The notes under the pieces were generated by a model, which was given only the letters and a program-made list of their open reading frames with translations, did no database searches and had not been told where the DNA came from. Position numbers and translations under genes: made by a program. From Pelagomonas calceolata (lineage: Eukaryota), in assembly GCA_918797485.1 (NCBI GenBank), contig CAKKNE010000001.1, positions 1,178,001-1,242,000 of the forward strand: 64,000 bases of DNA, read 5' to 3'. Below are positions 3,329-62,212 of the stretch, piece by piece. The stretch's first letter is position 1, and the number at the start of each line of letters is the position of its first letter.

Positions 3329-3396
3329 GATTTTCTGTTTTCCATCGAAGCCATCGCCGCGCGCCCCGCAAACCAGAATTATATGTACAACAAGTA

Positions 3397-5736
3397 TTAT
3401 AGATACGGCGCCGACGCGGGCGGCGCGGAAGGAGGCGAGTCGTCCTCCGAGTCCGGCAGCGCCATGGCCCAGAAAGCGTGCGTGCCTTTTCTCTTCAGTA
3501 GTCTCATGGACCCCCGCACGACTCTGACGACGTCCGGTACTTCTCTGATAGCCTCAAATAATCGATCCAGGTGGTCCCGGTCGTCGACATGAACGGTATA
3601 TTGAAAAGCAGCTTGCCCACCGGGAGCGCGCGTCTCCGACATCACGTCGACGATGTTGACCATGGAGACCGCTTGCGAGACATCTAAGAGCATCCGCGTG
3701 CGGTCGCGCCCGAACACGACTAGTGAAGAATCATAGCCAAGGACTTCACCGGTAAAAGCGTCCTTGACTTTCGAGGAAGGACCTAAGGCCTGCCTCACGG
3801 CGTCGTAATCATCATCATTCATCGCTAGGGCCGCGCCGTCGACGAAGCGCGCCCCAGGTCGCTCTAGTTCCCTCCTCAAAACTTCGCAGTCGCAGTTGGC
3901 CCTATGTACGGTACCTCGCGTCGAGTGCTGGGCCGCCACCCCATGCACGGCATCACCCGGCAACGGCCGACAGACGCTACAAAGCTGCCAGGGCTCCCGC
4001 TCCTGTAAGGGCAGTTCTTCCTGGGCGGCAAAAGAAATAATATCGCCGTTCCGCAGGACGTAGGACGACGCCTCGGAGACCTCATTGACCAAGGCGCCGC
4101 CCTGCACGTCGATGCCCCAGTCGCCGCCCTGGATGACATGTGCCACCGCATCATTTAATGTTGCGCCCTTCGCGAGATTGAGAATCCTCCCTTGGGGCGC
4201 GAAGACAAAGACCCTACTGCCCAATAGCTCGTTACGTACAAGCTCCATAAATACCGAAGCCGAATCGACTTGGGCCTCCCATTCCCCAATAATCTGCAGC
4301 CAGGGTAGGGACGCGGTCTCGTCCTTATAAGACCAATGTGCTGCGGCGCCGAGCTCCGCGACGCGGTGCATGTCGTCGGTCCTTATTTGTACTTCTAGAG
4401 GCTGGGAACCAACTAACACTGTGGTATGTAAGGATCTATAACCATTGGGTTTTGGCGAACTAATATAATCTTTGAGCGTGCGAGGTAGGGGCGTCCACCG
4501 GCCATGCACCTTCCCTAGGACGTGATAACATAAAGCCGTGTCGTCTTCTACCGACTCTGTGGTGTCATCGGCCTCCAGAATGACGCGCAACGCCACGAGG
4601 TCGTCGACGCGCTCCAAGCCGCACTGCTGCCTTCTCATCTTCTTCCACGTACTATACGCTGATTTTGTTCTCCCTTCGACCCTAATTCTTCGAGCTCGAC
4701 CCCTCACAAGCTCGTCCCCGTACAGCATCTCCTCGAGTTGCTGCCGACAAGACTCGAGAGCGGCTTCGCACCTCTTCCTACGACCTTTGATAGCCGTATC
4801 CAGCGCCAGGTACTCGCCAGGGTATAAATGCCGGAAGGCTGCGTCTTCCAATTCGGTCTTGTACGTCCAGATACCTAACCGATGCGCTAACGGCGCGAAG
4901 ATCTCGAGCGTCTCGCGCGCGATCCTCGTCCGCTTCTTCGGCGGCATGAACTCCAGGGTGCGCATGTTGTGCAACCTATCAGCAAGCTTGACGACCACAA
5001 CCCTCCAGTCGCCGGCCATGGCCACGAACCTGCGCGGATATCAAGCTTTTACGGCGCGTTACGCCATCGACGCGACGCTTGCTCGACGGCGTGCACCCGA
5101 CGCACTGGTTTGATTTCCACACGCTGCCACGCACATGCTCCGCATGTTCTCGACCTGCTCCCGTTCGGCGTCCCAGTCCGGCGTATTTAACTCCCGGGCC
5201 ATCTTCGGGAGCTTCGAGACCTTCGTCTCGCCCTCGACGATGCCTCGCACGTCGCGCCCGAACATCGCCTCCACTTCTTGAAAGGTCATGTCCGTGTCTT
5301 CGACCGTGTCGTGCAATAATCCACTAACAACAGCGTCGCGGTCCATCCTCGTTTCTGCGAGGATGGATGCTACTGCAACAGGGTGAGTGACGAACGGCTG
5401 CCCGGAGCGCCGCGTCTGGCCGCGATGCGCCAAGAAGGCGACCTCGAGAGCGTACCTTACTGCTTGCCGCGCCGACGGCCGCAGATAAGTGGTAGCTTTC
5501 TGCAGCTGCTCCGCATAGGTCAACATCTCGAGCGCGTCTTCGGGCCGCGCGGTCTCGAGTCGTTCGAACAACGACGGGGCGTGCTCCCGGATTTCCGCAG
5601 CATAGGCGAAGGCCTCCTCCACGTTCTCGAGGTCGACCTTCGGTACGACGGCCTGGAACCTCGCGTGGGGGCGCCGCGAAGGAGGGCTCAGCCAGGCGCT
5701 GGCCGGGGCCGCGGCCAGGAGCCAGAGCAGCCGCAT
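3397..5736 (-). CDS. RSH: Plastid-targeted long RelA/SpoT homologue ((p)ppGpp synthetase/hydrolase); exons 5736-5135, 5029-3397
   Basis: Signal peptide + ASAWLSP. HD motif [47 protein letters not shown]-like segment, [15 protein letters not shown] zinc finger, ACT-like C-terminus. Splicing restores ENMRSM|FVAM. Confidence 0.93.
5030..5134 (-). mobile_element. Introner-derived intron (105 nt, GT-AG)
   Basis: GTGCGTGG...CGCGCAG, followed by exon GTTCGTGG (7/8 TSD). Contains GTGTGGAAATCAA and three blocks shared with the 30783-30960 element. Confidence 0.9.
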
Positions 5737-6105
5737 GCGGGTTGATCTTCTTCCCATGATCACTTCTAAGCAATTCTGATCATCTCCGTAGGCGCTTTAT
5801 CTCCCGATCCCGTGTTGCTCGCGTAAGCAGGAGCTAGCGAAATATCGTGCTATAGACACACTAGACCGGAGAGGCACCAAAGAGCAAGCGCCCAAACACC
5901 GTCGCTGTGCGTCGCCAGGGCCCGTTATCGCGTATCCGCTCTCCTTCTTGAAGCACCTGCAGCGGGCTGCAACGCCGCCGCTCGTCGCTACAGCCTAGGC
6001 ACTCAGCACTCCCTCGCCGCCGCTGTGTCAACTCAGAGCAGCGAGCGCGACGCAGTCAACCAGCCGCCGCCGCCGCATCAATAGCCGCGCGCAGCCGTAG
6101 CAAAG

Positions 6106-6795
6106 ATGCCGAGGCCACACCTCCTCCTCGCGCTCGCCATGACATCGGCCTTCGCGCCGGCGCCGCGCACGAAACAACGCCTGGTGGACCGCCAGATGAG
6201 GTGGCCCTGGCAAAAGAAACAACAAGCGGAAGAAGGGGAAGGCGGCGACGACATCACGAACTCGCCCGTCTTCCTCCAGAAGAAGGTCGGGGTCCTCCAG
6301 AACGAGCTCGTACAACTTGATAAGGACATCGCGGCCGCCGAGGCCAAGAAACAGGAGAACTGGGACGAGTGGGGCTCGCAGATCGAGAATATGAGGAATG
6401 AGTTCGCCGCCGTGAAGAAGCGGACGCAGGAAGCTCGTACTAGAGCAGAAGCTGTGGAAAGAGCGGGTGTGCTGGATCAGCTCCTAGGCCCGATCGACAA
6501 CTTCGACCGGGCCATTGTGGCGCAAAAAACTAGAGCTGATGCGAGCGAGGGCGTCCAGAAGGTCGTGGAGCGGTACACGGGTCCCGTGGCTGCTGCTTTT
6601 GACGAGGCCTTCAAGGAACTCGGCGCGGAGAAGATCGACGAAGTAGGTGTCCCGTTCGACCCCACGATCCACGAGGCGGCCATGACGGACTTCGATGAAA
6701 ATGCCGAGCCGGACACCGTCATCAAGGTGTTCCAGTACGGCGTCAAGGTGGGAGACCGGCTCATCCGGCCGGCGACGGTCGTCGTGAGCATGTAG
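6106..6795 (+). CDS. grpE: Plastid GrpE nucleotide exchange factor
   Basis: Signal + TSAFAP; IDNFDRA, GVPFDPTIHEA, VFQYGVKVGDRLIRPATVVVS. Confidence 0.92.
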   Translation: MPRPHLLLALAMTSAFAPAPRTKQRLVDRQMRWPWQKKQQAEEGEGGDDITNSPVFLQKKVGVLQNELVQLDKDIAAAEAKKQENWDEWGSQIENMRNEFAAVKKRTQEARTRAEAVERAGVLDQLLGPIDNFDRAIVAQKTRADASEGVQKVVERYTGPVAAAFDEAFKELGAEKIDEVGVPFDPTIHEAAMTDFDENAEPDTVIKVFQYGVKVGDRLIRPATVVVSM

Positions 6796-6936
6796 TCCCT
6801 AAGATAGTTAGATTTCAAACTTCGCGTCGATGGCGTGTTGGTGGGTAGAAGCGTGCCCAAACACGCCGTCGCCGCGGCGGCGGTACCTAGTACACTCATA
6901 TGTTACTGCCGCGCCGCCGGCGTTTAGATAAGAAAG

Positions 6937-8280
6937 CTACTCGAGCACGGTCACGACGCAGTTCGCGTGGCCCTCGCCACTCGCGCGGGCAGCCCGAACT
7001 TCGTCCATGGCCCGCAGGTGCATTTGGGCACGCTCGGACGCGTAGTCCCGCCGGAACTTGCGCGCCGGTACTTGTATGGCCGTCGCGCGGGGCACAAAAG
7101 ATAATGAAGAAGCGGACGCCCGCCACACGAGCGAGTAGCTCCTCACCACGTTGAACACGGCCCGCGGGCCCACGCGCAGCGTCAGAGCGGGATCATTGCC
7201 GTCTGATCCTTCAAAAGCAGCGAGCCACAGCTCCGCCGTTGTCGCGTGTTGGAGCGTCGCGTCGTGGGCTTCTATGGACGCGCGTCTTTTCAAAGTGCCG
7301 CCGCTCGTTCCCGCATACAAGTTCAAACGCCGTCCGGTCGCGTTGCGGATACAAACCGCGCACGCCCGTGATACTTCGTCCGGCGGCGCTTGTAACGCCT
7401 TTCCCAAGTTGTCCGGCGCCCGGACCGGCCTCGCGGGCGGCACGCGCGCCGCGACGACGTCATTTGTGCCCGTGAGGAACGTTGCGGTAGGGTTCTCAGG
7501 TTCCTCTTCGAACAGCAGCTCGACGTCCTCGCCGTTGTCCCTAGCTTCAAAGTAGGCGTCCTGGAACTCATCCAAATCCTCGAAGCCTATCAATCTCAAC
7601 CCCGCGCGCATCCATTCATATGAAGCTGCTTGTGACTTTGTATGTACTTTATGTACTACGATAGAACCGTCCTTCTTGCCCTCGAGCTCGAGGCCCATCG
7701 GACTTGAGGTAGAGAAGCGCGCGCGCGGCTCCTCCTTCTTCGGGGGTGGCGACGGCGGCCTATCGTACTCCGAGTCCGAGTCCGAGTCCCCGTACACCGA
7801 AGAAGCCGTCGTTAAAGCAACGGTAAAATCCCCCGGTGCATCTGACTCGTCGTCCATCTGCCCAGAGCGCAGCTTGACGCGCTTGCGGGAACGCGGTTGT
7901 AAGTATAACACTTTCAGTGCTTGGTCGTTGTCGTCTCTGCTTAGCCACAGCTCCGCTTCCTCAGTAGAATCATTTGCTATAACTAGTACCTCGTCCACAG
8001 CAGACTCAAAACCTTGGTAGGGCTTCGTGAACGTCTTCTTCTCGTCGATTACCACGCGCGGCGTCGGCGCCTCGCCGACGTTGTGTGGGGCTATGATGCC
8101 GTCCAAGTCCACATCTCTTAAATTCTTCGACGGGACGCGGAGCGGGATCTTGCGAGACGGTTTGCTGATCACGGGCTTGGTCGGTGTTGGGTGTCGAGCT
8201 ACGGCTGCGTCGGGCTCCCATTTGGTCGGCGACAGGTCCAAGCGGTCGAAGCGCGGCAGGCCGTTGTCCAGGCTCGACAT
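6937..8280 (-). CDS. Hypothetical protein with PDZ-like and VHL-beta-like segments
   Basis: 447-aa ORF. PMGLELEGKKDGSIVVHKVHTKSQA resembles PDZ; VCIRNATGRRLNLY...QHATTAELWLA resembles VHL beta. Both domain calls are by eye. Confidence 0.6.
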   Translation of the reverse strand: MSSLDNGLPRFDRLDLSPTKWEPDAAVARHPTPTKPVISKPSRKIPLRVPSKNLRDVDLDGIIAPHNVGEAPTPRVVIDEKKTFTKPYQGFESAVDEVLVIANDSTEEAELWLSRDDNDQALKVLYLQPRSRKRVKLRSGQMDDESDAPGDFTVALTTASSVYGDSDSDSEYDRPPSPPPKKEEPRARFSTSSPMGLELEGKKDGSIVVHKVHTKSQAASYEWMRAGLRLIGFEDLDEFQDAYFEARDNGEDVELLFEEEPENPTATFLTGTNDVVAARVPPARPVRAPDNLGKALQAPPDEVSRACAVCIRNATGRRLNLYAGTSGGTLKRRASIEAHDATLQHATTAELWLAAFEGSDGNDPALTLRVGPRAVFNVVRSYSLVWRASASSLSFVPRATAIQVPARKFRRDYASERAQMHLRAMDEVRAARASGEGHANCVVTVLE

Positions 8281-8577: not shown

Positions 8578-8852
8578 GAAGCGCCCAGCCAGCTGATGCG
8601 AGTTGCTGCGCAGCAGTGCTCACGCGTTGCGCATCAGGACCTCGGCAGTGCACAGCATTAGTGCGCTGCAAACGTGCGGCATCGATAGCCTCGCTGCTGT
8701 GCTGCTGGAGCTGCCTGTGAGAGCTGCACCTGCTCAGCTCAGCGCTGCGCGGACCGCTGCCGCGACGCGTCATAATTCGCAGCCGCATACGCGTCGGAAC
8801 GGCTGCGCGCGTAGCTGCACGCCATCGCCGCGCCGCGCGCCACACGCCCGCG

Positions 8853-9050: not shown

Positions 9051-9149
9051 TATTACGCATACCCCACCCGCACGCCATCGCCGCGACCGCGTCGACGGCG
9101 CGGAGAGGATACGACGTCGAAAAAAGAGGGAAACACAGTTAGAGAGAAA

Positions 9150-11724: not shown

Positions 11725-11811
11725 CTCACAGCAGCTCGAGCGAGTTGCACACACGGCCACGCCATCGCCGCGACAAGGCGGCACTCACAGCAGCTCGAGC
11801 GAGTCGCACAC
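11725..11811. repeat. 28-bp direct repeat (1 mismatch) duplicating the end of the sulfotransferase CDS
   Basis: CTCACAGCAGCTCGAGCGAGT(T/C)GCACAC at 11725-11752 and 11784-11811. Confidence 0.85.
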
Positions 11812-13005: not shown

Positions 13006-13076
13006 GGGTGCTGTTTTCGAGAGATGCTGCCCTGGCGGCGCTGTTTTGGGCAGCTTTCGCATGGGCAGCGTCCATC

Positions 13077-20221: not shown

Positions 20222-21146
20222 ATGCAGCGAAAAGTCGTCGCACTCGCCCTCGCGGCCACCGCCGTGGCGGCATGGCAGCCGGCCACTCGCATCAGCAGCC
20301 GCGCGACGCCGCTGAAGATGAGCGAGCAGCTCACGGACGACGAGGAGGCCGAGATCATTGCGAACGCGCAGAAAATCGCGAAGAAGAAGCGCTCGAACCT
20401 CTACAACGAGGAGGGCGTCGCCTACGTGCGGTGCAGCGCATCAATCAAATTGTATAAAGTGCTCCGCCAACGCTGCATCAGGCCCTCCACGCCGTCGACG
20501 CGCCGCCGGCGCAACGGCGGGGCGGTCTGGGACTTGCGCCCCTCCATGCGGCCAGCGCGGCCTCGCGCACCCGACTCACCGGTTCATTCACACGCAGGCG
20601 CCCTGGATGGTCAGGCAGGTCGACGAGGACGCCGTCGCCGCGGCGCGCGCGATGCGCGGCTACGAGAAACGGCGGGAGCGCATCGCGCTCGAGGAGAAGC
20701 AGGGTACGATCAACATCTTGGACGCTGCCTCCTCGGAACTCACGGGGTTGGGACTGAAGGCCAAGGTCTTGTCGGAGGACGAGGTCGAGCTGACGTGGTC
20801 GACGGACGACGAGGAGGCCAACCGGGGCTTCCTGGTGGAGAGAAAAGCTGTGGGCTACAGCGACTGGGATGAAGTCGCCTCCTACCAGTCGTGGTCGCCC
20901 CTCAAATCCAAGGGCACGCTGGGCGGCGCCTACTCGTACATCGACGCGACGGTGTCCGAGGGCGAGTGGCTCTACCGTATCGTCGCGGAGCAGTCCGACA
21001 ATAGCCGCGCGATTGTCTGTCAGGTCGGCGTCTCCGTCGAGAACTCGGGCCAGCAGCTCCAGACCAAATTGGTTGTGGGCGGGTTTGCGGCGCTCGTGCT
21101 GGGCGCGCTCGCGGCGGGCGCGCTGCTGGACCCGATCAAGGGCTAG
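20222..21146 (+). CDS. Plastid-targeted protein with FN3-like fold and C-terminal TM helix; exons 20222-20425, 20598-21146
   Basis: Signal + AAWQP; spliced GVAY|APWM; VELTWST..GFLVERK..YSYIDATV..WLYRI is FN3-like. Confidence 0.75.
20426..20597 (+). mobile_element. Introner-derived intron (172 nt), inserted in the opposite orientation to the kinesin copy
   Basis: GTGCGG...CACGCAG. The 3' end GCACCCGACTCACCGGTTCATTCACACGCAG resembles GCACCCGACGCACTGGTTGATTTCCACACAG; contains CCACGCCGTCGACGCG. Confidence 0.85.
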
Positions 21147-22622: not shown

Positions 22623-23831
22623 TCAGAAGCTCTGGAGGCCGCGCCGCTGCGCGTTTTCCGCGTCCAACTGTGCATCGAGCACAACGCCATACACGGGGCC
22701 CTCGCAGACGGGGCACACGTCTTTCGTGACGCGCCAGCGCGAGAGGCAGTCCGCGCAGGCGACGTGGGCACACCCCGCCACGCGCGCCGCCGTCTCCACC
22801 GCCCCAAAGCAGATAGGGCACTGGTGGACACCTGTGTGGAAATCAAATTTCGGGCGCCCCACGCCGTCGACGCGACGTGATCCCGTGACGGCCATCGGCT
22901 CGAGAACCTAACTCACTTGTTGATTTCCACACGGGTGCACACCGGAGGCTCCTTGACCCGCCAAGGAACGAGCGAGTTTTCTCGCGAGGACCTTGTCGGA
23001 AAAGCTCGACGGACCGCTCTCGAAAGAGGACGGCCGCGAGTCGGGCGGCGTGGTATCGGTGGGAGGAAGCGGCGGCGGCTTCCAGCCCGCCGGCGTGGCG
23101 TCCGACGCGGGGACCAAAGGTGGAGGCGGGATGTCCTCGTTCTGCGTCGCGAGGCGCGCTCTATCTAATAAAGAGCACAAGACCGTCTGCGCGAGCGTCG
23201 CCGCGGCGCCGTTTGCTGCGGGAGCCCTCACGAGCCGTTCCCCAAAGTAGATGACGATGACGGCCGAGGGAGCTCTAGGCCCGCCCGGCGTCTTCGCGGG
23301 CGGCACCACGGGTAGAGCGATGGCCGTGCGCACTCCAGCATTGAGCGCCGCCTCCTGCCTCGCGTACGTCGACGACGCGCCGACCGCCGGGACGTCCACA
23401 ACTTCGGCGACGCCTAACAACCACACTCGACCAACTAAACCAATACCAGGACTGAAAGTGACGTGCGAGGCCACCCTTAACATCTTGGCGGTCGGGTCCT
23501 CGAGACACCTCATACAAGTATGGCCTCTCGGCGCGCGCATCGGCGAGTAGCAGCCGCGCTGCGCGCCGGCGCCGAACACGAGCGAGATCTGCTCGACGTC
23601 GTCATCGGTCACCGGTGTCGGTTCCGGGTTCGAGGGCGGCGGCCCCCAGCCGGCGGGGATGCGCGCCTGGCGCCCTTGCGCGCGCCAGATCTCGCAGACG
23701 CTCCAGGGCGCCGTCGTGTTTTGCGTCGCGCTGCAGAGCTCCGACGCGAGCCATTCCACATACGCCGTGTCGTCGCGCGGCACGACCAATGCGGTGGAGG
23801 GCACCCCCGTCGCGTCGCCGCCGCCGCCCAT
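22623..23831 (-). CDS. GAF-like domain + C3HC4 RING-finger protein; exons 23831-22943, 22831-22623
   Basis: FSPGIGLVGRVW...YARQEAALNAGVRTAIALPV (GAF-like), spliced GAS-G|VHQ to CPICF..CAHVACADC..W..CPVC (RING). Confidence 0.8.
22832..22942 (-). mobile_element. Introner intron (111 nt) with TIRs and 7/8 TSD
   Basis: Plus strand reads GTGGACAC-CTGTGTGGAAATCAA...TTGATTTCCACACGG-GTGCACAC. Confidence 0.93.
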
Positions 23832-24960: not shown

Positions 24961-25220
24961 GGTTGCGTGCTGGGCGCGGCGCCGGCGTTGTTACGGTAGT
25001 GTAGATGACCTCTCGGGGTCGCGCCGATGGCGTGCGGCGCTTCTACAACCGCTAGGAGCTTCGCACTTGCAAGGCCACCACTGCTTTTTGTGCGGAATCG
25101 ACGCACCGCCGCGCAGCGATCGTGAGGCACAATATTTTGGTCACAGTTATGCTATCCGAGCACTGTTCTGCCGTCCGATGGCCCACAAGAGTCGTGTGTG
25201 CCGCAAGCGTAAAGCCGAGT

Positions 25221-25473: not shown

Positions 25474-28400
25474 ATGACGGAGCGCCAGCACCTCGGCCGC
25501 GGCCTCGAGGTGTCAAGAAGGACGACGGCCGACTCCGAGGACCTGGATCTGCTCGCGGATTTCAACGTCGAGCGCATCCAGCAGTTCCTCAACAAGCCCT
25601 TCGAGCGCGTGGGCGAAGCGCTGGAAAAGGTCGAGGAAAGACTAAAGGCACAGAACATCACGCTCGTGGACGACTTGAAGCGCGAGAACGACCGGTCACC
25701 GAGACCACGTCGAGAACAAGTGAAAAGGGACCCGACGCTGTCCTCGACACGAAAAATGGGGCCCCGCGCCCGCTTCGGCGACGGCGACGGCGGGTTCTGG
25801 GATAGGTGGCTCACGGACGCGGGCTGCGCTTCGGGTTCAGGTGACTACGCGATGCCTACGAACGATGTTGCTGCTGGTTATGTGGCGCCTAAATCGGGCT
25901 TCAAGGCTCCTTTAGGTGAAGAGGTGCCGTCGCCGCCGCCGCGCCGGGTTTCTTCTCCTCCAAAACCAGAGCAGGTTGCTGTGGATGTTGATGGAAGGTT
26001 TTACAAAGCCTACGGTATTGATGAAGAGGACCTGAAACCGTCCGAGCGGCGCATGTTGCGGGCCCTCGACGCGTCTTCCTCATCTAAAGTGTCCGTGGCT
26101 GCCCAGCATTTGATGGACGACGAGGCCACTGCCTTAGGTAGGGCGCTGACACGCGCCGACGTTGAGCTGACTTCATTGGATGTGTCGCGCAACGCCCTCG
26201 GGAAGGGTTTGAATGCTGTCCTGCGCGGCGCCGCCTCTTTCTCAAAGCTCGAGACCTTCGACGCGTCGGGCGTCAGCCCCTTCGCTATGGACGCCTTGGC
26301 CTCGGCATTGACGGGTGGCTTTGACGGACTGCGGGTCCTGCGCCTCGCGCGGTGCCAGCTGCGCGACGGTTCAATGGTAGAACTGTGCCGCGCGCTGCGG
26401 TCGCGGGACGCGCCGCCCCTCGAGGTGCTGGATTTGAGCAACAACGCCCTCGGCGACGGCGACCCGCAAGGTCAGGACGACGCGGCCTGGTACCGGGCCC
26501 CCTTCTTCGGGCCGCTCGGGGCGCTCGTCGGCGACGCGTCTACGCTGGACGACGCCGACAAAGAAAAGGACCTCGTCGAGGGCGAGCGGCGGGACGGGCC
26601 GCTGTCGCTGACCTCGCTCGACGCGTCCGGCAACCGGCTGCGGCCCGAGAACGTGCGGGGCATCGCGCACGGCCTGAGCGTGTCGCGGCTGCGCCACCTC
26701 TCCCTGAATGACAACCCGGACGTTGGTAACCAGGGTGGCATCGCTCTTGGCGCAGCGATCCGCACGGTTCGGGCCGGCGTCCTTTCATTCAACGTGCGCG
26801 CGTCGCGACGACGTGGTCTCCTCGACGACGTTGTTGCCGCGATGGCGTCGAGGTGGACCGCCATATAAACGCGAGAAACACGCAGGCGGCGCTGCTCGAG
26901 GAGCTGTCCCTCGCGCGAACTGGACTAAATGCGACGGGCGCTGTGGTCGTGGCCGTCGGCGCGCGACGTTCAAGGTATGTTCACCGCCTGGACGTCTCGG
27001 GGAATGCCGTAGGTGCTGCCGGTGTTATCCTCACGTCGCTCGCGCTAGACGAAGAACGAAATTGTTCAGTGGTGATGCGGGACTGCGACTTCGTCGCGGC
27101 GTCGGAGGAGGTGGTCGTAGACTGGCTCCACCAGATCACCGTGTCGCGCAAGTCGCGGCCGCCTTTGCGGTACGAGTTCCATGTCGAGGACCCGCTCGAC
27201 GCGGCGCTGGCGTCCGAGACGCTGCGGCTGTGCGCGCGGGACGACTTCGCCGTCGCGGGCGCCGTGGCCCGCGTCGCCGCGCCAGTGAGGAGGCCCGTCG
27301 AGGCGCCGCGGACGGACGCCCGGGCGCGGCGGCCAGCGATGATCGCTCCGAAAACCTTCGACGCGTTCCGCCTGCGGCGCCCGCAAGAGAATACCAAAGA
27401 CGTGCTCGACGCGCGAACCGTGAAGAAGGTCCGGGCGGAGCTCGAGCCGAAATTAGCGCGGCGCGGCAAGGCCGTCGCCCGAGAGACGCTCGACCTCACG
27501 AAGATGGAGAAGCTCCTCAAGTCCGTGGACAGTAATGCCACGTCAAAGGACGCGGAGCGCGCGCTCCGATTCCTGGACTTTGACGAAAGGGGGACGGTCG
27601 ACGCGTTCGCGGCGTATCGCTACGCGCTCGAAGACACGCCCCAGCTTTTGCGGCAGCGCGCGGCGGGCGCCGCGCCTCCGCGACCTCTGCGCAAGGAGGA
27701 TGACGCCTTCGACGTGCCGGTGACGGGCGTCCTGCAGCTGCGGTGTTTCCTGGAGCGCACAGTGCGCGGTTCTCGGAGTGCGAACGTCCTCAAGCTTGCT
27801 CAGGACCTGGACGATTGCGTCGCGGCGGCACACCTCGCTTGTAAGGCGCGCGTCAAGCTGGACGTCGACGACGCCCTGGCGCTGGCTCTGTCGCTCGCGC
27901 AGCGCGACGACTGCACGGACATTTCGGCCGTGGCCCTCGTGGTGCCGCTGACCGTGGACCCGAGGGACGCGCGCTGCGTCCGCGACGCTTTGTTGGGGCG
28001 GCTGTTTTCGTACAAAGCCGACGCGGAGGAGCGTCTCTCGATCGTGGAGCGGTACCGCGCCTTGCGGGCCAAGCTCGGGCCCGGCCACCGCGCCTTCCTC
28101 GGGCCCCGCGACGGCCGCTACGCCCTCGATTTGTCGCGGCCCGGCGACCGCACGGCGCTGCGCGAGCTGTTCGCGGTCGATGCGTTCCGCAACTGCCGCG
28201 TCGACGGCTCCTACCAGCCCCTCGGCATCACAATCGGCGGGGAGCCGAAGCGCGACGCGCAGCTCGCGGCGCTGTTCGCATCCGAGGGAGCGCCCTCGCT
28301 CGGTTCGCGAACGGACGGCCACGTGGTCGTCGACGTCGCGTCGCCCGCCCCGCCCCAACCGGAGACGACGCCCGCGCTGGATTCGACTGTCTTTGTGGAC

Positions 28401-29543: not shown

Positions 29544-31922
29544 TTAGAACGCCCCGACCGCATCCCCCCGCCCCGGCCCGTACATCTCGCCAAGCTGGGG
29601 CAGCATCTCCGAGCCCTTGCACGGCGACGTCGTCACGTAGCCCGTCGCGGCCACCGGGTTGTTGGTCAGCTTCTTCTTGCGGCGAGGTCTGCGGCGCGGC
29701 CCGCCGCGCCGCGCCAGCGCGTGCGAGAGCGATAAGGGCGTCGTGGAGGGAGGGGCTTCCGGCGGTGTCTCCCTGCCGTTCCCAGCCTTCAGGCACTTGA
29801 TCGACTTGTCGAAGAGGTCGTGCCACTTCTTCTCGCCGTCGTCGTAGGCGACACAATGTAATCCACGTTTCGGATCGTACGAGACGACGTCCCCAGCATA
29901 AGCCCGGTTGAACCGGAAGCTAAACACTTCGACGCGACCGCCGACGTCTCTCATGTCACCATACAATATCGCCGTAGGTTCCTCCGGCGGCGGCGACTGG
30001 ACGATTGGTGCCGGGGCTGGTTTCCGCCGCCGGCGGCGCCGCTGGGGCCGGGGCGGCGTTTTTTGTGGAGGCGGCGGCTCGTCGACCGCCTCCATCTCGG
30101 CCAGCTGCCTCTCCAATTCCTCGCGCTCCCGCCGGATCCGCTCGAACTCGGCCTCGTCCTGCGACAGCTCCTCCTCGACCTGGGCTTGGCGTTCCGCCAG
30201 CATCTTAGAAGCTGCCTTCTCTTCAAGCTTGGCAGCCTCCGCTGCTAAGCTATCGGAGGAGGCCCGCGCGGCCGACGTCGGCCGCGGGCCCACGACGGTA
30301 TCCAGCTTCTCGAGCCGCTGCTGGAACTGTGTTATACTAACGTCGTCGGGCTGCGACGACGGCCGCGGCGGCCGCCCCCGCTGCTTCTTCTTCTTCCGCG
30401 GCGACGTCCGCGAGACCATATCTGCTGAGGGGACCGCCTTGACGCTGGCCGCCATCTGAGGATCCAAGAGCTTCCTCAACTGTTCATTTTCCGCGCGAAG
30501 CGCCGCGACCTCGGCCTGGAGGCTCTTCGTCACGTCGACGAGCTGCATCTGCTTCACGAAGGACGGCGGCTTGACCGGCGATGCGCTCCTCAAAGCCTCC
30601 TTGAGGCGCCGGATCTCGTCCTTGGCCTTTTTGAGGGCCGTCGCGAGCGTCGCGTCGGACGCCGACGGCACGACGTCGCGATTCGCGTAGACGCGCGCGA
30701 GGACGCGCTGCGCGCGGTCCGCAAATTTCAAAGTAGACACGGACTCGTCCGCGTAGATCGATTCGGGGGCGCAGCACGCCACCTGTGTGGAAATCAAAAT
30801 TTTACGGCGCGTTCATCCTGAATCGCCGCGTCGACCTCCACGCCATCGACGCGACGCCTGCTCGATGGCTTGGCGATGCCGATTCCTCGCCGCTCGACAG
30901 AGCCAGCGCGGCCACGCCATCGCTGAGAAGCACCCGACGCACTGGTTGATTTCCACACAGCACGCCACAATTGCCGTCCGCGTATTCCCCCCCAATGAAT
31001 CCTGCAACAACCGCGTCAGCGTGCTGTCTCTATAAGGGACGTGCGGCCGTTTCGTCGGCCCGTCGCTGAGGGCCGACACCACGTTCCCCAGAGCGCTTAA
31101 CGAACGGTTGATGTCCACGTGTTCTTTGAAGCGCTGCGTCTCCGAGGGGTTGTACATTTTGGACGGGCTGCCCTCCGCGTCGTCCTCGAGGGCCGAGGCC
31201 CGTTCGCTTCCAGCTAAATCAACCAAATATAATCGAGACTTGACGACCTCTACATCATCCGTTTTCTCGATGTCGACCCTCAACACGGCGTGCGATCTAC
31301 TAGAAGCGTCGTTTCTTTTGGTCGAGCGCTCTCGTCTCCCTTTCAAGCCCCGATTCACAACTTTTAAAGCTGCCTCGGCGTCGTCCACCACGATGGAGGA
31401 CAACCCAGACACGTAGAGCTCATCGGTAACACGGGAGGCCAGCCGCACCCTCAGCGGTATTTCTGATGAAGGCGATAGGAGGTCCTCGAGCTTCTCGCCC
31501 AGGATTTGCAACAAACTGACGGAGACTTTGGCCGCTCTAGGTGCTGGAGTTTGGGCAACAGGTGTGGGCGGCTCGTCGCTCCCGAGCTTGTCAAATAGAG
31601 CGTTCAAAGCCTTCGGAATGATACCGTCGTTATCGCCGAGCATCGTATGTGTTTTGCCGGCCCCGGTCTGCCCATAAGCCATGACGCACGCGTTAATACC
31701 TTCGGTTGTTTGTAATACGACGTCCTCGACCTTGCGGTAGACGTCATTCTGCGTCGCTGCGGGCCCCAATATATCAGCAAACGCACCCGTGAAGCGCTTC
31801 CCATCACCACAATCCACCTCGAGCTGGTCCCCGCATGTGACAGCCTCCGTCTTTGTTTTATCTTGTGCCGGGCGCACCCTTACTACAACCCTGATGTTGG
31901 ACAGCTCGGCGGGCTCGTCCAT
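29544..31922 (-). CDS. Kinesin motor protein with coiled coil and C-terminal Tudor-like domain; exons 31922-30969, 30782-29544
   Basis: IRVVVRVRP, GQTGAGKT, SSRSH, LVDLAGSE, HVPYRDSTLTRLLQDSLGGN; spliced TAI|VACCAP; tail HCVAYDDGEKKWHDL. Confidence 0.92.
30783..30960. mobile_element. Intact introner element (178 bp) with 15-bp TIRs and perfect 8-bp TSD; intron = 30783-30968
   Basis: CACGCCAC(30775-82) CTGTGTGGAAATCAA...TTGATTTCCACACAG CACGCCAC(30961-68). On the minus strand the GT donor comes from the TSD and the AG acceptor from the TIR. Confidence 0.97.
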
Positions 31923-33866: not shown

Positions 33867-34359
33867 GTGGGTATCTCAGCATCCTCGTCTGTAACGGTCC
33901 GGGTGTGACTCGGAGGACTAGTGGGAGGAGCCCCTGGGGAGACTGGCACCGGACGCGATCATCGTCGCGATGCCGGCGCAGGCCCTCCACGCCATCGAGC
34001 AGACGCGGCTACGAATCAGAGGTACTGAATTTCATTGGCTCAGCCTGAGGTTAGCTGGTTGTGGTAGCATTAAGGCTTCGCCGGCTGCCCGTCAGCAGCC
34101 GCCACCCCACTCTGCTTTTGTCTGACTTGTGACAGGCACAACCAGAGTGATTGGGGGATTATTTTTTCATTCTTCTCGACCGCCCCACGGCGGCGACGAG
34201 CGTTCTAACAGCGCGTTAAGCACGTTTCTCGTGTAGGTGCCGATACAACCGCGAGCGCAGGGGAGCCGCCGGAGCGGCGGGGGACTTAGAGGGTTCTGAA
34301 GGACGGAGAATGACGAGGCCGACGCGTGTCACCGCGCGCCTCCGGGAGAGCGCACCGCT

Positions 34360-36512: not shown

Positions 36513-38268
36513 ATGCCAAAGGCATCCTCACTGCTGCTGCTGCTGCACGCCGCCGCCGCGCTGTGGAGCAAAACCGACTGGCGCACCATGTTCCGCACGG
36601 CCAGCGAGTGCCCGCGACGCACGCCGCTCGACGTCGTGCACGGTGCCATTCCCGCAGCGCTGCGCGGCACGGCCTACAAGGTCGGTCCGGGAAGATTTGG
36701 CGTCGGCAGCGAGGATTACGCACACTGGCTCGACGGCGACGGCTACGTCTTCGCGCTGGATTTCGCCGACGGCGGCGCTACATACTGCGCACGCTTCGTG
36801 GAGACGGCCGGCTACGTCGAGGAGCAGGAGAAGATCACATGGAGGACCACGTTCGGAACGCAAAGGCCGGGCGGCCCGCTGGCGAACGCCTTCGACCTGA
36901 AACTCAAGAATCCAGCAAACACGAACGTGTTGGCAATCCCGGGCCGCGACCGCGTCCTGGCGCTGTGGGAAGCGGGCGCGCCGCACGCCCTCGACATGGA
37001 GACACTTCACACAGTAGGCGTCGACTCGCTGGACGAGAGAGTCGTCCCGGGACCACCCGGCGCGCTCCCGCTAGACCTGCCGCTGCCCTTCACGGGAGAC
37101 GCCGTGAGCGCGCACTACGCCGCGTGCGCGACGACGAAGCAGACCGTGGCGTGGTCGTGGCGACGGCCCGCGTTGGGCGACGACCTCTTCGTGAAGCTCC
37201 ACGAGCTCTCGGACGTCAGCGGCCACGCCGAGGGCGGCGTCGATGGCGTCCTCGAGGGCGTGTCGTTCGCGCCCCATGATATAGGAGCGACGCCCACCCG
37301 TGCTTGTTTCTTAGCCGCACCGGCGCGAGGTCAGCGTCGACATTCACGCCATCGCCGCGGCTCATATTCACACGCAGGCAAGCGTCGAGGTGCTGGGCTA
37401 CGTCCTGGGCTTCCGCGGCCCGGCACAGGGCGTGTTCTTCGACGACAAGCGAATACGCGCGGGAGAGGGCACGACGCTCCATGCCCTCGACCGCAGAAAC
37501 GGCGGAACGGCGGAGCGGTACGTGTGCCCCGACGCGCACGACGCAGCGTCGGAATCAACGCGTCGATGGCGTCAGACATGTCCACGCAGGTACCATCCTA
37601 TTCACGTCGCCAACGCCTGGGACGACGAGACATCGGGCTGCCCGTCCATGATCGCGGCGTGCTGGCCTCCAGACTGCGTCAACGCGATGGCGTCCGAACG
37701 ACGGGACATCCTCGGCGACTGGGCACCGCTCCTCGGCGGCGATTTTTCGGGAGCTGCGGTGACGCAGCTCGTGTCGTTTAGCGGCCACGGCGGCGGCGCG
37801 AGGGCGCGCGTGCTGTGTAGCGGTGCGCATTTGGACCACTGTAAGGTGCACCCGGCCGCCGGTGGCCTCGAGAACAAATTCGTCTACGCCTCCGCCGGCG
37901 CCGCCGTCGCGCGTGGTGACATCAATGACCTCACTTATGCTGCACCGCAACCGCCCCAGGCGTTCGTCCGCGTCGACGTATCTGAGGATGCCGTCGTCGA
38001 TTCGTGGTTCTGCGGCGAGCGGCGGTTCACGGACGACGCGGTGCTCGCGGCAACAGGGGAGGACGAGACTGATGCCTATCTTATAGCGCCGGTCTACGAT
38101 GCCGCGACGCAGCGGTCTACGATTATAGTGCTCGACTGCGGTGACCTCGCCGCGGGACCGGTCTGCGAGCTCGCCCTGCCCGACGACGCGCCATTTATCC
38201 CGTGGGGCCTACATGGCGCCTGGAGCCCCGCAGCGAACGGTGCTACCCGCGCCACCGAGCATGTATGA
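36513..38268 (+). CDS. CCD: Carotenoid cleavage oxygenase (RPE65/CCD family), probably plastid-targeted; two short introns
   Basis: HWLDGDG, KNPANTNV, LALWEAGAPH, AVSAH, FAPHD, IHVANAWD, PWGLHGAW (four Fe-binding His). Introns 37323-37377 and 37518(or 37536)-37589. Confidence 0.88.
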
Positions 38269-38931: not shown

Positions 38932-39445
38932 TTCTGAAATTCGGCCGTGTTTAACGAGCGAGAGGCGAGCTCGGAGCTTTTGTGCGGCGACAGCTGTGCA
39001 GCCTGTCGGCTGGTGCTACCACAGGCGTGGCTTGCAGCGGTTCTTTTGGTGTGCGGTCGCGCGAGGGCTGCCTCCGCACCGGTCGCTACGCGTGCGCGAG
39101 GCCTTTGGCTGCCCTTGGCTGCCCTGAATCCAATTGTGCCGTGGCTGTGTGGAAAAAAAGGAACAACCCGCACGCGCGAGTGGAGGTAGCCGAAGCCACG
39201 GAAGGCCTACGGAGCCCTCTATAGGCCTCTCGTGTCCCTGTCGCTCGCGCGCACTCAGTGCGCGCGTCTGCGAAGCCGCCCAGCGCCATGCACAGCGCAT
39301 CAGTGGTTGCTGTCGCGACAAAAGCGCAAGGCACCGTCACAAGCAGCACACACGCATCGCACCGACGCCGTCGACGCGCTGGCTTAGTGATCGGGCAGCC
39401 CGGCGGACCAGAAGAACAGCCCCAAGTACGGCAACCACCCACACC

Positions 39446-40345: not shown

Positions 40346-40531
40346 CATATGAATGTACTATTACTTTCGCGGCGACGGCGTGCTGGTGGTACGCGCTTCG
40401 ACCCCACCGGGGCGCACTTGACCCCACCAATACGCCCGGGCCGTCGACGCGGCGAAGTTTTTGAGAGAACATGGATTACACAGGGCGGGACTTTGACGGA
40501 CGAGCTTGGATTTTCTTTTTCCGGCTCGGCC

Positions 40532-52312: not shown

Positions 52313-52444
52313 TTAGTGTTATTCACAACAGGGACATTACGCGACGCCTCGCGCCGATGGCGTGGCGGTGGTGTAGCTCTCGCCGGCACGCCATCGCCGC
52401 GACGGCGTCGAGGCGGCGTGACAGCACGTCGACCATCGCCAAGA

Positions 52445-58152: not shown

Positions 58153-58550
58153 CTCTCTGGACCTTCGTCTCGGTGCTCTGGTCGCGCGGCATCCGCTACG
58201 TCGTCATCGGCGCGCGCCTGCTGGACGCGATCAAACGCGCGGGCCACGAACGGATGTATACTGGGGGCGTCGCGGGTTTGCTTGGTATGATGATATTCAA
58301 CGCCGTCGTCATCGCGGACTGCGCGCGGCGGCTCTGGAAGTTCGGCGTCCGGACGCCGATGCCTCGGCCTCCAATTCAACCCTCGGAGCGACTCCACGGC
58401 TTCATGCTCTTCTCGAAGGAGATGCGTCCCTACGTCGAGCGCGACGACCCGTCGCTCACGTATGGCCAGGTCGGCAAGCGCCTCGCCGAGCTCTGGCGAT
58501 GCCTGACGGACGCGGAGAAGGCCAAGTATGCACTGCCGAGGAGGCGCTAA
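58086..58550 (+). CDS. HMG-box protein (5' end probably truncated)
   Basis: GFMLFSKEMRPYVERDDPSLTYGQVGKRLAELWRCLTDAEKAKY. Confidence 0.7.
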   Translation: MGRDRGEWESRRGRGRATLRRATLWTFVSVLWSRGIRYVVIGARLLDAIKRAGHERMYTGGVAGLLGMMIFNAVVIADCARRLWKFGVRTPMPRPPIQPSERLHGFMLFSKEMRPYVERDDPSLTYGQVGKRLAELWRCLTDAEKAKYALPRRR

Positions 58551-58607
58551 CTACAGTAGGATTCTTAACGTAGTGGACAGGGGGGGACAGTGGACAGGGG
58601 GGATTGT

Positions 58608-60716
58608 TCATACCGGTACAGCCGTCTCGGCCGCCGGTTTAATGACGGCCTTGAGCGCCGCCGCGTCGAGCGTCTCGTGCTCGACCAGCGCGTCGGCCAA
58701 AGCACGAATAATGCTCTCGTGGTCCTTCACGAGTTGCAAGGCGCGTGCTTCCGCCTCGACAAGCTCCGCGCGCACAGCTGCGTCGCCATCCTCGCCACCA
58801 ATTTCATGCCTCTTGCCATATTCATCAATCCAAGACGTGAAGACGGCGCCGTCCTGCGACAACCCATACGTCTTGACGATGGCCTCCGCTAAGACAGCAG
58901 CTCTCCGGACGTCGTCGGCCGCGCCCGTCGACGCGTCTCCTAGCAAGTGGGCCTCGGCGGCCTTGCCCGCGAGCATCATCACAACTCTATCACGTAATTC
59001 GGCCCGTCTCAGATTCGTCGCGTCGCCGGCGCCGAACATCGTGACTCCTAGCGAGCCGCCGCTCCGGGGCCTTACCGACGCGCGCGTCGCCTCGTCCACA
59101 TTTTCCAGAAAGAAGCTCGAGACCGCATGCCCGGCCTCGTGGACGGCGATCCGATGGTCCGGTTTCGGGGACGCGCCGTCCGGGTGCGTGGGGATGCCCA
59201 GTATAGCATCTTCAAGGGCTCTCAAATAGTCGTCCCTCGTCGCGTAGTCTTGGTCCTTGTCCAACGCGGCCAGGGCTGCATCGTTGACGACCGCAGCAAC
59301 ATCCGCACCCACCAACCCGGGAGATAAATCAGCCAGAGTCGAGGCGAGGTCAGTATCATTCTCGACCTTCGAACCGCCCTCGTAAGATACAGAAAATGAA
59401 ACATCTTCTGAACCGCTCTTGCGCTGCGCCCTCCTACCCTGGGCCCTTGCAATAATAGCTTCCAGGTCGCGCGCATCTAACCTAGCGGTATTATTGGCAA
59501 ACAACGTCGCTTTTGCTCTCAACCCGGCCGCCTTGACGGGCTTGAAGACTCGCAACGTCGTATTGTCGAGGGCCTGGCAGGCAACTTCGGTATTATCGAC
59601 CTTGAACGTAATCTCGCGCGCCAGGAACGCCGACCGCTGCCTGCCGACGTAGTGCTCGAATAAAGCTTCTCTTCCATCTCTATCCGGCGCCGCCATCTCG
59701 ACCACCCTATCAAAACGGCCTCTTCTGGTAAGAGCGGGATCGAGCATGTCCCGCCTATTCGTCGCGGCTAGGACGACAACATCGGGATTGGAGGCATCTC
59801 TCACCCCAAAGCCGTCCATCTCGACCAGTAATTGGTTCAGCGTGTTGTCGTGGTCCGCACCTACTGCCGACGCGTCGCCGCCTCGGACTCTTCCACACGA
59901 GTCGAGCTCATCAATAAAAACCACGGCGAGTCTGCCCGTACTTCGCGCGGCCACGCGTCTCGCAGCCGCGAACAGCGTGCGCACTCGTTCGACGCCGACG
60001 CCCGCGTACTTGCCCTTGACGATTTCAGCTGCCGAGGCTACCAACAAAGGCGCGTCGAGCTGCGCGGCCGCCGCTCGGGCTATCAATGTTTTTCCCGTCC
60101 CCGGCGGACCAGCTAGTAAGACGTTGCGCGGCGGCGTCGCGCCGGCCCTCCGGGCTTTTTGTGAGGCGTCGGCCGCGCCGGCCACGCGTAGTATTCTTCT
60201 CAACTCCGACACCGCCGCGGGCGCACCTACCACGTCGTCCCAGGTCGTGGCGTCCGGTCCACTTCCGCCGCCGTAGACCGTGATGAAATCGTCGACGCCC
60301 TCCTCGTTCAAAATAACGCCTTCTCTACCCAACTTCTTCTTGATCGATTGGGTTATACTTCGAAACGTGTACGCGCAGGACCGCGGTGCTAACACGCAGC
60401 CCTGGAGCAGCGCTAGAGCTAGTCTTGCCGCCGTTTTAGGACCGGTGAAGCGTTTTGTGGTCGCGGTCGTGTTCGCGACGAAGCCTTCTTCCGGTGCCGT
60501 GTGCGAGGCGTTCTTGCCGCCGCCACTTGGCGGCTTAGGCTTGGGGGCCCGGGGCGCTTTGCGGGTCTTGCGGCGCGGGGCGAGGGGCGTGCTGCCGGCG
60601 GCGGTCGCCAGCAGCACCACGCAGCCGAGGTTTACCGCATGACCGACCCCAATGAGAGGACTGAAACCCAGTGCCCAAAAAAAGGCTGTGATCAGGACGG
60701 GGATCGGCGTACGCAT
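58608..60716 (-). CDS. ftsH: FtsH/AFG3-like AAA+ zinc metalloprotease
   Basis: N-terminal TM; GPPGTGKT, VFIDELD, NQLLVEMDGF, ATNR..LDPALTRRGRFDR, HEAGH, STGAADD. Confidence 0.9.
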   Translation of the reverse strand: MRTPIPVLITAFFWALGFSPLIGVGHAVNLGCVVLLATAAGSTPLAPRRKTRKAPRAPKPKPPSGGGKNASHTAPEEGFVANTTATTKRFTGPKTAARLALALLQGCVLAPRSCAYTFRSITQSIKKKLGREGVILNEEGVDDFITVYGGGSGPDATTWDDVVGAPAAVSELRRILRVAGAADASQKARRAGATPPRNVLLAGPPGTGKTLIARAAAAQLDAPLLVASAAEIVKGKYAGVGVERVRTLFAAARRVAARSTGRLAVVFIDELDSCGRVRGGDASAVGADHDNTLNQLLVEMDGFGVRDASNPDVVVLAATNRRDMLDPALTRRGRFDRVVEMAAPDRDGREALFEHYVGRQRSAFLAREITFKVDNTEVACQALDNTTLRVFKPVKAAGLRAKATLFANNTARLDARDLEAIIARAQGRRAQRKSGSEDVSFSVSYEGGSKVENDTDLASTLADLSPGLVGADVAAVVNDAALAALDKDQDYATRDDYLRALEDAILGIPTHPDGASPKPDHRIAVHEAGHAVSSFFLENVDEATRASVRPRSGGSLGVTMFGAGDATNLRRAELRDRVVMMLAGKAAEAHLLGDASTGAADDVRRAAVLAEAIVKTYGLSQDGAVFTSWIDEYGKRHEIGGEDGDAAVRAELVEAEARALQLVKDHESIIRALADALVEHETLDAAALKAVIKPAAETAVPV

Positions 60717-60836
60717 CCTGCCAAGGTGATCAGCGGTAGGTGGGTGATAGCCGCGAACTTTGTGACGTGTTTTTGACGGCTCTAGGTAGGCCAATGCAGA
60801 GAAGTAGCCTCGAGAGCTGACGGTGTTTTTTTGTTT

Positions 60837-60859
60837 CTAGTGTGTCAATCAACGCTAGC
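60837..60859 (+). promoter_or_regulatory. CTAG-box (CTAGTGTGTCAATCAACGCTAGC) in divergent spacer
   Basis: Lies between 60716(-) and 61071(+). Confidence 0.6.
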
Positions 60860-61070
60860 TCGGCTGCTCGGCAAAAAAGCGTGCGATACGTGCCAAAATC
60901 AGCGCGCTGTGCCAGCAAACAGTAGCGACGGACGCATCGTTCAACTCTCGCAATCGTTCGGCAGCGTTTCATTGCTGCACAGCCTCCAGTGACAAGTGCC
61001 TCCCAGCAGTGCACAGCTCATAGCACTCGTACGACTCGTGCTGCTGTGCTGATAGCGCTCAGAAAACTGG

Positions 61071-62129
61071 ATGCGACTCGTGCTGACAAGCATAGCTCTC
61101 GCGTCGAGCATGGAGCCGCGCCGCTCTTTCGGCACCGAGATAGCGTCTGCTGCATCCCCGAAACCGCCGCGCTTCGTCGACGTCGACAAGTTCGACGTCG
61201 CCGACGGCGCCGCGGCGCGCGCACACCTCGACGAGCGCGGCTTTGTGGTCTTCCGAGGCGTGCTCGATCAAGGAGAGGTCGCGCGCGCGAACGAGCTCTT
61301 CTTCGACTATGTGGAAGCGTTGGGTAGCGGTGTCGACCGCAACGACGTAAATACTTGGGGCGACGACCGCTGGCCGCCGTGCGCAGGGGATGCTGGTATC
61401 CTTCCATGGTTCGGCGTCGGTCAGTCTCCTTTTATGTGGTACGTCCGCACGCGGACGAAGGTCGCCAAGGCCTACCGCCAGGCGTGGGGTTTGGACGCGG
61501 ACGCTCCCCTGGCGACGAGCTTCGACGGCTGTTGCGCCTGGCGGCCCGGGCAGGTCACGCGCTCGGGCTGGCTGCACGTGGACCAGGATGCGCTGAGAGG
61601 CAATCAGCGCGAGATGCTCCAGGGCCTCGTACACCTGACGGCGCCGGTCTCCGAGAGTACGGGCGGCCTCGTGCTCGTCGATCGTTCTCATCGCACCGTC
61701 TTCCCGCGCCTCGCCGATCAGTACGGAGATGCGCTGAAAGCGAATAACGGTGATGACTACTTCGAGCTCGGCGCCGACGACGCCGCGTACGCCGACCCGA
61801 TCTGCTGCCGCCTCGAGCCCGGCGAACTTATTATTTGGGACTCGCGAGTGGCCCACGCGTCGCACCCGCCGAGCGAGCCGGCCGCGGACCCGCACGCGCT
61901 CGTGCGCCTCTGTGCATATGTATGTATGGCACCTCCGTCAGGAGACGAATCTGTGCAGCGCGCGCGGCGCGAGGCGTTCGAGGAAGGGCAGACGACGACG
62001 CATTGGCCCACGAAGGTCGTCACGACGGACGTCTACGAGAGCTTCGCCGCGCTGCCGGATCACGTCCGACTGCGGTACGGCGAGGCGCCGCGCGCCGCGC
62101 GGACTCCGGAGGTCGAGGCGTTGCTGTGA
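61071..62129 (+). CDS. Phytanoyl-CoA dioxygenase-family (2OG-Fe) protein
   Basis: LDERGFVVFRGVL, WLHVDQ, GGLVLVDRSH, PGELIIWDSRVAH, RLCAYVCMAP, TTTHWP. Confidence 0.82.
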   Translation: MRLVLTSIALASSMEPRRSFGTEIASAASPKPPRFVDVDKFDVADGAAARAHLDERGFVVFRGVLDQGEVARANELFFDYVEALGSGVDRNDVNTWGDDRWPPCAGDAGILPWFGVGQSPFMWYVRTRTKVAKAYRQAWGLDADAPLATSFDGCCAWRPGQVTRSGWLHVDQDALRGNQREMLQGLVHLTAPVSESTGGLVLVDRSHRTVFPRLADQYGDALKANNGDDYFELGADDAAYADPICCRLEPGELIIWDSRVAHASHPPSEPAADPHALVRLCAYVCMAPPSGDESVQRARREAFEEGQTTTHWPTKVVTTDVYESFAALPDHVRLRYGEAPRAARTPEVEALL

Positions 62130-62212
62130 CTCTCGCGGCGATGACGCCATCGCCGCGACGTTTGTAATACTGGTCTTGTGAACGTGAGTTATGTGTGAGA
62201 GAGATAAAGGGC

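Follow-up and report, generated by a model that had tools for sequence, protein, structure and literature searches.

We found that a word of 14-15 nucleotides (nt), ACGCC(A/G)TCG(A/C)CGCG, the core of a family of introners (repeated introns with terminal inverted repeats, TIRs), recurs alone in TIR-less introns and at gene edges, both in a stretch of 64,000 nt from Pelagomonas calceolata (the window; contig CAKKNE010000001.1, positions 1,178,001 to 1,242,000) and in an independent sample of metagenome loci. Tentatively, we read the word as a protein-binding site that introners would bring with them and that selection would retain in introns and at gene edges, because it is present in introners, is spared by their deletions, stands solo in TIR-less introns and spacers, shows a profile with three variable positions and peaks after stop codons. 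The recurrence had been noticed in an earlier reading of the window from its letters only (the sequence-only reading); the pattern is real, but it was partly overstated.

The window is gene-dense eukaryotic DNA of 64% GC, in which 41 genes were annotated by hand from open reading frames (ORFs) and reads (one of the proteins has relatives in Chrysophaeum taylorii (51%) and Aureococcus anophagefferens (44%) among 25 matches, which places the lineage within the pelagophytes). Eleven introns were annotated, four of which were confirmed by RNA reads (5030, 16101, 20426 and 62766), the donor of the intron near 15177 being uncertain. The exact word, CGCCATCG(A/C)CGCG, has 11 copies in the window, and CACGCCATCGMCGCG at no more than one mismatch gives 16 matches against 0.09 expected in shuffles. 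Counted with R at position 7 and at most one mismatch to CACGCCRTCGMCGCG, the word reaches 5.4 matches/kb in introns (6 in 1,106 nt) and 3.7/kb in spacers between convergent genes (9 in 2,408 nt), against 0.04/kb in coding sequence (CDS; 2 in 48,791 nt); divergent spacers have 0.41/kb (3 in 7,274 nt) and tandem spacers none in 4,421 nt. The equal frequency in coding DNA that the sequence-only reading had named as counting against its claim was therefore not found.

Composition could be rejected as an explanation, since 300 permuted words matched to it in composition and number of CpGs averaged 0.02 spacer matches and never exceeded 1, versus 8 observed for the word itself, and dinucleotide shuffles gave 0.23 versus 34 observed. 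A codon artefact was considered as well, the word in frame reading H/D-A-I/V-D/A-A and 8 of the 14 near-matches in window CDS being so framed, and was rejected for the three 5' copies in the window, all of them out of frame. A word or variant stands at all 14 coordinates given in the sequence-only reading, though exactly at only seven (6823, 8818, 9071, 11758, 18842, 52388 and 62143); those at 3350, 6862, 9088, 39364, 40440 and 52354 are variants by one or two letters, 33988 is a half-word, and a perfect copy at 40368 (minus strand) was missing from that list. Its presence in nearly all introns was likewise overstated: at no more than one mismatch it occurs in 6 of the 11 window introns, and its 8-mer core in 8.

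The independent sample was obtained by scanning a metagenome with a 26-nt introner end as bait, which gave at least 124 matches in at least 120 loci. Among the loci obtained, none was orthologous to genes of the window. Five overlapping loci were dropped, leaving 115 (239 kb), whose compartments were labelled by a gene hidden Markov model (HMM); on cross-validation in the window it was right for 46,169 of 48,791 coding, 13,496 of 14,103 intergenic and 737 of 1,106 intron bases. With the bait elements masked, and in a sample in which baiting with the right end of the introner favours introner-rich regions, the word reached 3.7 matches/kb in introns, 1.0 in convergent, 0.41 in divergent and 0.32 in tandem spacers, and 0.13 in CDS (convergent versus CDS, p 0.0008). 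Long spacers carried it in 5 of 22 convergent, 3 of 23 tandem and 5 of 28 divergent cases. The claimed recurrence in convergent spacers thus holds for the window, where 6 of the 10 such spacers of at least 60 nt have the word (8 allowing two mismatches), and not as a preference elsewhere, where convergent spacers are not significantly above the other types; the window is a rich case and overstates the convergent bias.

Near genes, the word occupies a preferred position. In the independent 3' flanks, 7 of the 9 matches start 22-41 nt after the stop codon and are centred 25-50 nt after it (p 6e-5), as are 5 of the 9 matches in the 3' flanks of the window, and the top de novo 8-mers of the 3' flanks are pieces of the word. 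Among 159 3' flanks, with short spacers counted from both sides, 19, 25 and 34 carry it at 1, 2 and 3 mismatches (12-21%), so that it marks roughly one gene end in six and is not a universal terminator. Upstream of genes, 8 of the 9 independent 5'-flank matches lie within about 70 nt of the ATG; the two upstream copies that had been reported for the window were borne out, the one at 8818 lying 20 nt before the ATG at 8853 and the variant at 39364 lying 67 nt before the ATG at 39446.

The element from which the word derives could be defined in detail. Of the bait matches, 91 had both TIRs (89 unique, 85 used), and among the matches listed the HMM assigned 89 of 119 bait sites to introns. The consensus element spans 203 nt and has a 15-nt TIR, CTGTGTGGAAATCAA, a GT five bases into the TIR and an 8-bp target site duplication (TSD) at no more than one mismatch in 68 of 83 copies; the word occupies positions 57-71, with an inverted half-partner at about 78-90. 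Splicing of the parent introner was seen at 5030-5134, with the joint present in two raw runs and one contig. With many near-identical intron copies, TIRs, a TSD and splicing, the parent is a pelagophyte introner of the type of a miniature inverted-repeat transposable element (MITE), which supports the proposed link of the word to introners. TSDs of 8 bp are associated with the hAT superfamily, and this length is what points to the introners being hAT-like. The 8-bp insertion target (L063-L182) showed a weak palindromic preference, with G-T at its start and A-C at its end.

Deletions largely spare the word. Positions 57-90 are covered by deletions in about 8% of copies, compared with 28% at 32-40, 44% at 150-168 and 15-35% for equally GC-rich parts of the introner. 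In the 85 two-TIR copies, 9 of 50 distinct deletions touch the word versus 19.8 expected (p 0.0002), and among right-anchored deletions 2 of 24 begin ahead of position 72 versus 9.3 expected. Substitutions amount to 3.0% in the word and about 7% elsewhere (4.7% once columns above 15% are removed). The word is also carried by a second family of intron repeats, whose ends differ and which was found in three introns (loci L092 and L095). Locus L121 has four similar introns of 44-49 nt that start with GTCC(A/G)TCGA and have no word, a separate small intron family.

Outside full introners, it is mainly the word that is found. When 13-nt tiles of the introner were searched in 57 kb of spacers, the word tiles gave 21, 16 and 9 matches, a tile overlapping the start of the word gave 6 and all other tiles 0-4 (TIR tiles 4). 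Flank homology to an intron copy at p <0.05 was seen for 5 of 24 window spacer sites and was weak, extending clearly only at 33988; this comparison was run without masking bait elements, and 5 of the 15 rows that reached significance represent introners, whole or deleted, within stretches labelled as spacer. Of the 13 TIR-less introns with the word, 12 have no other similarity to the introner, a comparison of low power. Among 52 non-coding matches at no more than two mismatches to the ancestral word, changes concentrate at positions 1, 7 and 11 (46, 23 and 37%), whereas the other positions are changed in at most 7% and the four CpGs are intact. The motif is sharp-edged with position-specific tolerance, as in a binding site, and this profile would reflect either such a site or a few founder variants.

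Stranded poly(A) RNA-seq reads were examined over 2500-22400 and 51000-63400, about 6% of each raw run being read, and for the former region 15 of 18 splice joints are listed. Two read piles, which we take as RNA 3' ends, lie at 3389 and 9128, at distances of 27 and 25 nt from the words beyond them, and a contig end at 18869 is 14 nt short of another; the words at 3347, 9088 and 18841 are therefore outside the mature RNA. Contigs run unspliced through the words at 6823, 11758, 52387 and 62143 (contigs can merge neighbouring transcripts), reads over 51000-63400 gave no sharp 3' ends, and sharp RNA ends at 18263 and 21157-62 have no word.

The sequence-only reading had also described the spacer copies as often forming hairpins. 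Several inverted pairs do fold well, with z-scores of -3.6 (6815-6885), -4.9 (52335-52425), -4.0 (62128-62165), -2.2 (9060-9110) and -1.1 (40360-40460), so that 4 of 5 fold better than shuffles, although these scores are post hoc and inverted pairs fold by construction. Two single copies that were folded were unremarkable, opposite-orientation pairs in spacers outside the window number 4, and most copies are single. Since the word is found at 12-21% of 3' flanks, also before ATGs, with hairpins a minority, there is no general start/stop punctuation of the kind that had been suggested together with a CTAG box; the word is moreover absent from the RNA ends at 18263 and 21157-62. CTAG occurs in 42 of 159 80-nt 3' flanks and in 80 of 141 250-nt 5' flanks, and plain CTAG is not start-specific. 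In the 5' flanks, GGCTGCCC and GGGCAGCC (21/141 each) and CTAGTGTCTTAC-type words (about 10/141) rank top, for instance at 10848-10872 and 25222-25245 of the window.

The sites in the window are the following.
3347..3361, plus strand: solo word variant in a convergent spacer, beyond the inferred 3' end of a RelA/SpoT-like mRNA.
5030..5134, minus strand: RNA-confirmed introner intron, a deleted copy with one TIR decayed, word at 5060 plus the inverted half-partner.
6823..6876, unstranded: inverted word pair 3' of the GrpE stop codon, a hairpin; unspliced, contig 6807-8345 reads through.
8818..8832, plus strand: solo word before the ATG at 8853, sense and out of frame; read depth of 63-65 at 8797-8801 and no joint place it in a 5' untranslated region (UTR).
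9071..9102, unstranded: inverted pair with a 2-nt gap, past the inferred RNA 3' end at 9128; geometry as at L064:12518.
11758..11772, plus strand: solo word 12 nt 3' of the stop codon of the minus-strand gene 11785-13062, unspliced in contig 11670-13050.
18841..18855, plus strand: solo word just past the contig end of a mitochondrial carrier mRNA.
20426..20597, plus strand: RNA-confirmed TIR-less intron retaining the word (20488).
22832..22942, minus strand: predicted introner intron in which both TIRs and the word (22860) are present.
25020..25034, minus strand: solo word 59 nt before the ATG at 24960, absent from the earlier list.
26767..26885, plus strand: predicted intron whose antisense word is degenerate, with just the 8-mer core.
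30783..30968, minus strand: near-full introner as a predicted kinesin intron, with TIRs, 8-bp TSD and word at 30839.
33985..34013, plus strand: relic of the inverted half-partner region of an introner subfamily, with the longest flank homology among the window spacer sites.
37330..37377, plus strand: predicted 48-nt intron, of which the word (37345) makes up about one third; acceptor read from sequence.
37522..37589, plus strand: predicted 68-nt intron with an antisense word (37559).
39364..39378, plus strand: word variant before the ATG at 39446.
40368..40451, unstranded: inverted pair in a convergent spacer, a perfect copy at 40368 and a 2-mismatch copy at 40437, followed by a CACAG acceptor-like site.
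52350..52409, unstranded: inverted pair plus a third degenerate copy, a hairpin without a joint.
62134..62157, unstranded: truncated reverse copy paired with a forward copy in a short hairpin; contig 60873-62765 reads through unspliced.
62766..62844, minus strand: RNA-confirmed intron with a half-word.

Several observations belong to these sites. The stretch 11754-11775 matches the third internal copy of the introner in foreign reads, and 52388-52420 is common to other transcribed loci, foreign reads showing a similar 33-nt unit and related word pairs. A coding remnant at 33988 was considered and rejected, as there is no Pfam match and the site matches an introner subfamily instead. Beside this relic, in the same convergent spacer, is a type-P3 twister ribozyme (34057-34143, minus strand; Rfam, 42 bits versus a gathering score of 39.9, with the conserved letters of the core aligned), which may mark a retroelement fragment. 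Beyond the word at 11758, a direct repeat of about 28 nt (about 11723-11752 and 11783-11810) duplicates the last codons of gene 11785-13062, and a short CTAG-rich stretch at 11615-11656 occurs in several hundred foreign reads, a repeat common in other transcripts and also found in a spacer of L108. Short non-coding stretches at 18505-18552 and 18747-18796 are 92% common to L121 and L093 and also occur in foreign contigs. Elsewhere in the window, a non-coding repeat of 1.2 kb (54984-56157) is 86% identical to L121 7706-8877, with reads showing divergent copies to be transcribed, and an ORF of 2,630 amino acids (42846-50738, minus strand) includes low-complexity tandem repeats that take up about 4 kb (44.7-48.6 kb). 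A viral scan with a 17-mer gave 62 single matches, which were taken as chance.

The sequence-only reading had offered a transposon-borne word co-opted as a shared signal, for which position-specific invariance and the peak after stops speak, and co-option is plausible at that level. The course of events would be that introners (8-bp TSD, hAT-like) insert in genes and at gene edges, that deletions then strip the inserted elements while the word persists, sometimes locally duplicated into tandem or inverted pairs, and that a host or domesticated factor binds the word on DNA, with a putative role in organising chromatin or boundaries in short non-coding gaps. Selection would keep the word after the rest of the element has decayed, as an optional site at a minority of gene ends; some solo copies may also have arisen de novo. 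This binding-site reading is favoured because a second family carries the word, because the word is found in either orientation in TIR introns (sense in 5, antisense in 9, both in 1) as well as in 3' flanks (sense in 6, antisense in 12), and because three words lie outside the mature RNA. The more far-reaching version, in which pelagophyte introners deliver a putative host chromatin- or boundary-factor site and the host whittles the elements down to the word, now shared by thousands of introns and gene edges, we hold to be unlikely.

A number of points weigh against selection for a protein-binding site. The compartment labels of the 115 loci are the output of our own HMM. Convergent spacers there do not differ significantly from the others per base (p 0.08) or per spacer (5/22 versus 8/51, p 0.51), most gene ends have no word, and neither do 25 of 38 TIR-less introns. 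The introner copies are related and hence not independent, many deletion ends lie at microhomologies, the sparing in two-TIR copies is equally expected if the transposase needs the word, and the three variable positions may reflect few founder families. The word is sense in 10 TIR-less introns, antisense in 2 and in both orientations in 1, and sense in 12 of 12 5'-flank matches (one also counted as a 3' match); this preference for sense where DNA is transcribed points to a role in RNA or a family-fixed orientation. Finally, the surroundings of the words showed neither CpG nor nucleosome periodicity, in a sample in which no CpG periodicity was detectable anywhere. DNMT5-type CpG clusters lie at nucleosome linkers and would be in phase with periodic CpG of the coding DNA around them; no such phasing was seen in this sample.

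A strong rival, although we consider it somewhat unlikely, is that the copies are neutral relics: the word would be an internal transposase-binding motif of several introner families, kept only while the elements are mobile, and the solo copies harmless leftovers, multiplied by slippage and fold-back and persisting where insertions are tolerated. Two repeat families have the word as their core, the copies at 33988 and L086:4726 are clear relics whose flanks show homology, tandem and inverted duplications occur locally within introns, and convergent spacers below 60 nt never carry the word (none of 6 in the window and none of 7 in the loci). Precedents are transposase binding of an internal motif in the Emigrant MITE (PMC1636448) and intergenic partial introners in Micromonas (PMC4815162). 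Relics should, however, include TIR ends and other parts, and these are rare (0-4 versus 21); for 19 of the 24 window spacer sites no intron copy shows significant homology in the flanks, changes under neutral decay should be evenly distributed whereas 12 of 15 positions are almost fixed, and the word lies 57 nt inside the element, not adjoining the TIR.

It is doubtful that the word acts at the RNA level, where a sense word or hairpin would be bound on pre-mRNA and aid the splicing of old introns or affect UTR stability or 3' processing. The sense orientation in all 5'-flank matches and in 10 of the 12 single-orientation TIR-less introns would fit, as would the intact introner offering CACGCCATCGA on both strands through its internal inverted pair, the good folding of several pairs and the contigs with words in 3' UTRs (6823, 11758, 52387 and 62143). 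Among the copies at 3' ends, however, antisense predominates (12 of 18) and three are located past the end of the RNA; copies standing singly do not fold, an Rfam search found no family at the words, and the RNA-confirmed 79-nt intron at 16101 is spliced with only a 3-mismatch remnant of the word.

It is very unlikely that the word serves as a polar roadblock terminator where genes converge, in the manner of yeast Reb1/Rap1 sites. The two sharp inferred RNA ends and the contig end just before words recall yeast roadblocks, called 5-25 bp upstream of the site in the available text (PMC5052057), and convergent spacers of the window are word-rich; against this, both orientations occur in introns, two of which (5030 and 20426) are within well-expressed genes, four contigs run through spacer words, two sharp ends have no word, 17 of 22 long convergent spacers elsewhere lack it, and poly(A) ends are cleavage sites, not polymerase stops. 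Hardly credible, and refuted as a general claim, is the proposal of the sequence-only reading that the spacer copies are unannotated UTR introner introns, since no splice joint spans the words at 3350, 6823/62, 8818, 9071/88, 11758, 18842, 52354/88 and 62134 (8 of 8 covered among 11 listed loci) in the same reads that detect four true introns, and the sites checked for splicing have no TIRs or TSDs; three listed loci (33988, 39364 and 40440) are outside read coverage, and 40368..40451, with a GT and the CACAG site around the pair at 40346-40531, is the best remaining candidate.

The fate of introners after insertion, and the retention of their parts by the host, is the question to which these results relate, partial copies having so far been interpreted as decay. 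With one defined word that survives in shrunken introns and at gene edges, it can be put to the test in a marine alga that is abundant. If a host factor does bind the word, this would explain the tolerance of introners and why shrunken introns stop at the word; if the copies are neutral, the word would still be a candidate transposase site and a marker of old introner-derived introns. The family type and the intergenic introner fragments of Micromonas were already known, while for the word and its selective persistence no description was found in the topic-level literature, and cacgccatcgacgcg had 0 matches in the main texts of the full-text literature (supplements and subscription papers being outside this scope).

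For P. calceolata itself, 956 putative introner elements have been reported, as repeated introns of about 200 nt with TIRs, GT/GC donors and an AG acceptor (PMC9481584, available text), and for Aureococcus sp. introners with an 8-bp TSD plus 4 nt of the element left in the mRNA (bioRxiv 2022.06.06.494994, available text). Our element agrees with these in length, TIRs, the GT five bases into the TIR and the TSD; the internal word, the sparing from deletions and the solo copies at gene edges are not described in the text covered of these papers (logo figure S3 and one scanned supplement lying outside it). In Micromonas CCMP1545, single-motif partial introners, motif multiplication within introns and 349 intergenic partial copies are alike, but in the text available (PMC4815162) they are read as decay and almost all sense, and position-specific constraint or a post-stop peak is not reported there. 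In the Emigrant/Lemi1 system, as far as described in the available text (PMC1636448), deletion derivatives that stay mobile would retain an internal motif required in addition to the TIRs; this gives no account of persistence in TIR-less introns or as solo copies, and that system is pogo-like, in contrast to the 8-bp TSD here. Yeast Reb1/Rap1/Abf1 roadblocks are likewise short DNA sites found close to RNA ends in a minority of loci, and many of them are read through (PMC5052057, in part). The motif here is, however, unrelated to the sites of these general regulatory factors, transposon-borne and densest in introns. Bacterial REP sequences are short repeats derived from mobile elements that follow stop codons. 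Leishmania SIDERs are likewise mobile-element-derived short repeats, in 3' UTRs (PMC2323293). From both, the copies in P. calceolata differ in being mostly single and not hairpins, with several outside the mRNA.

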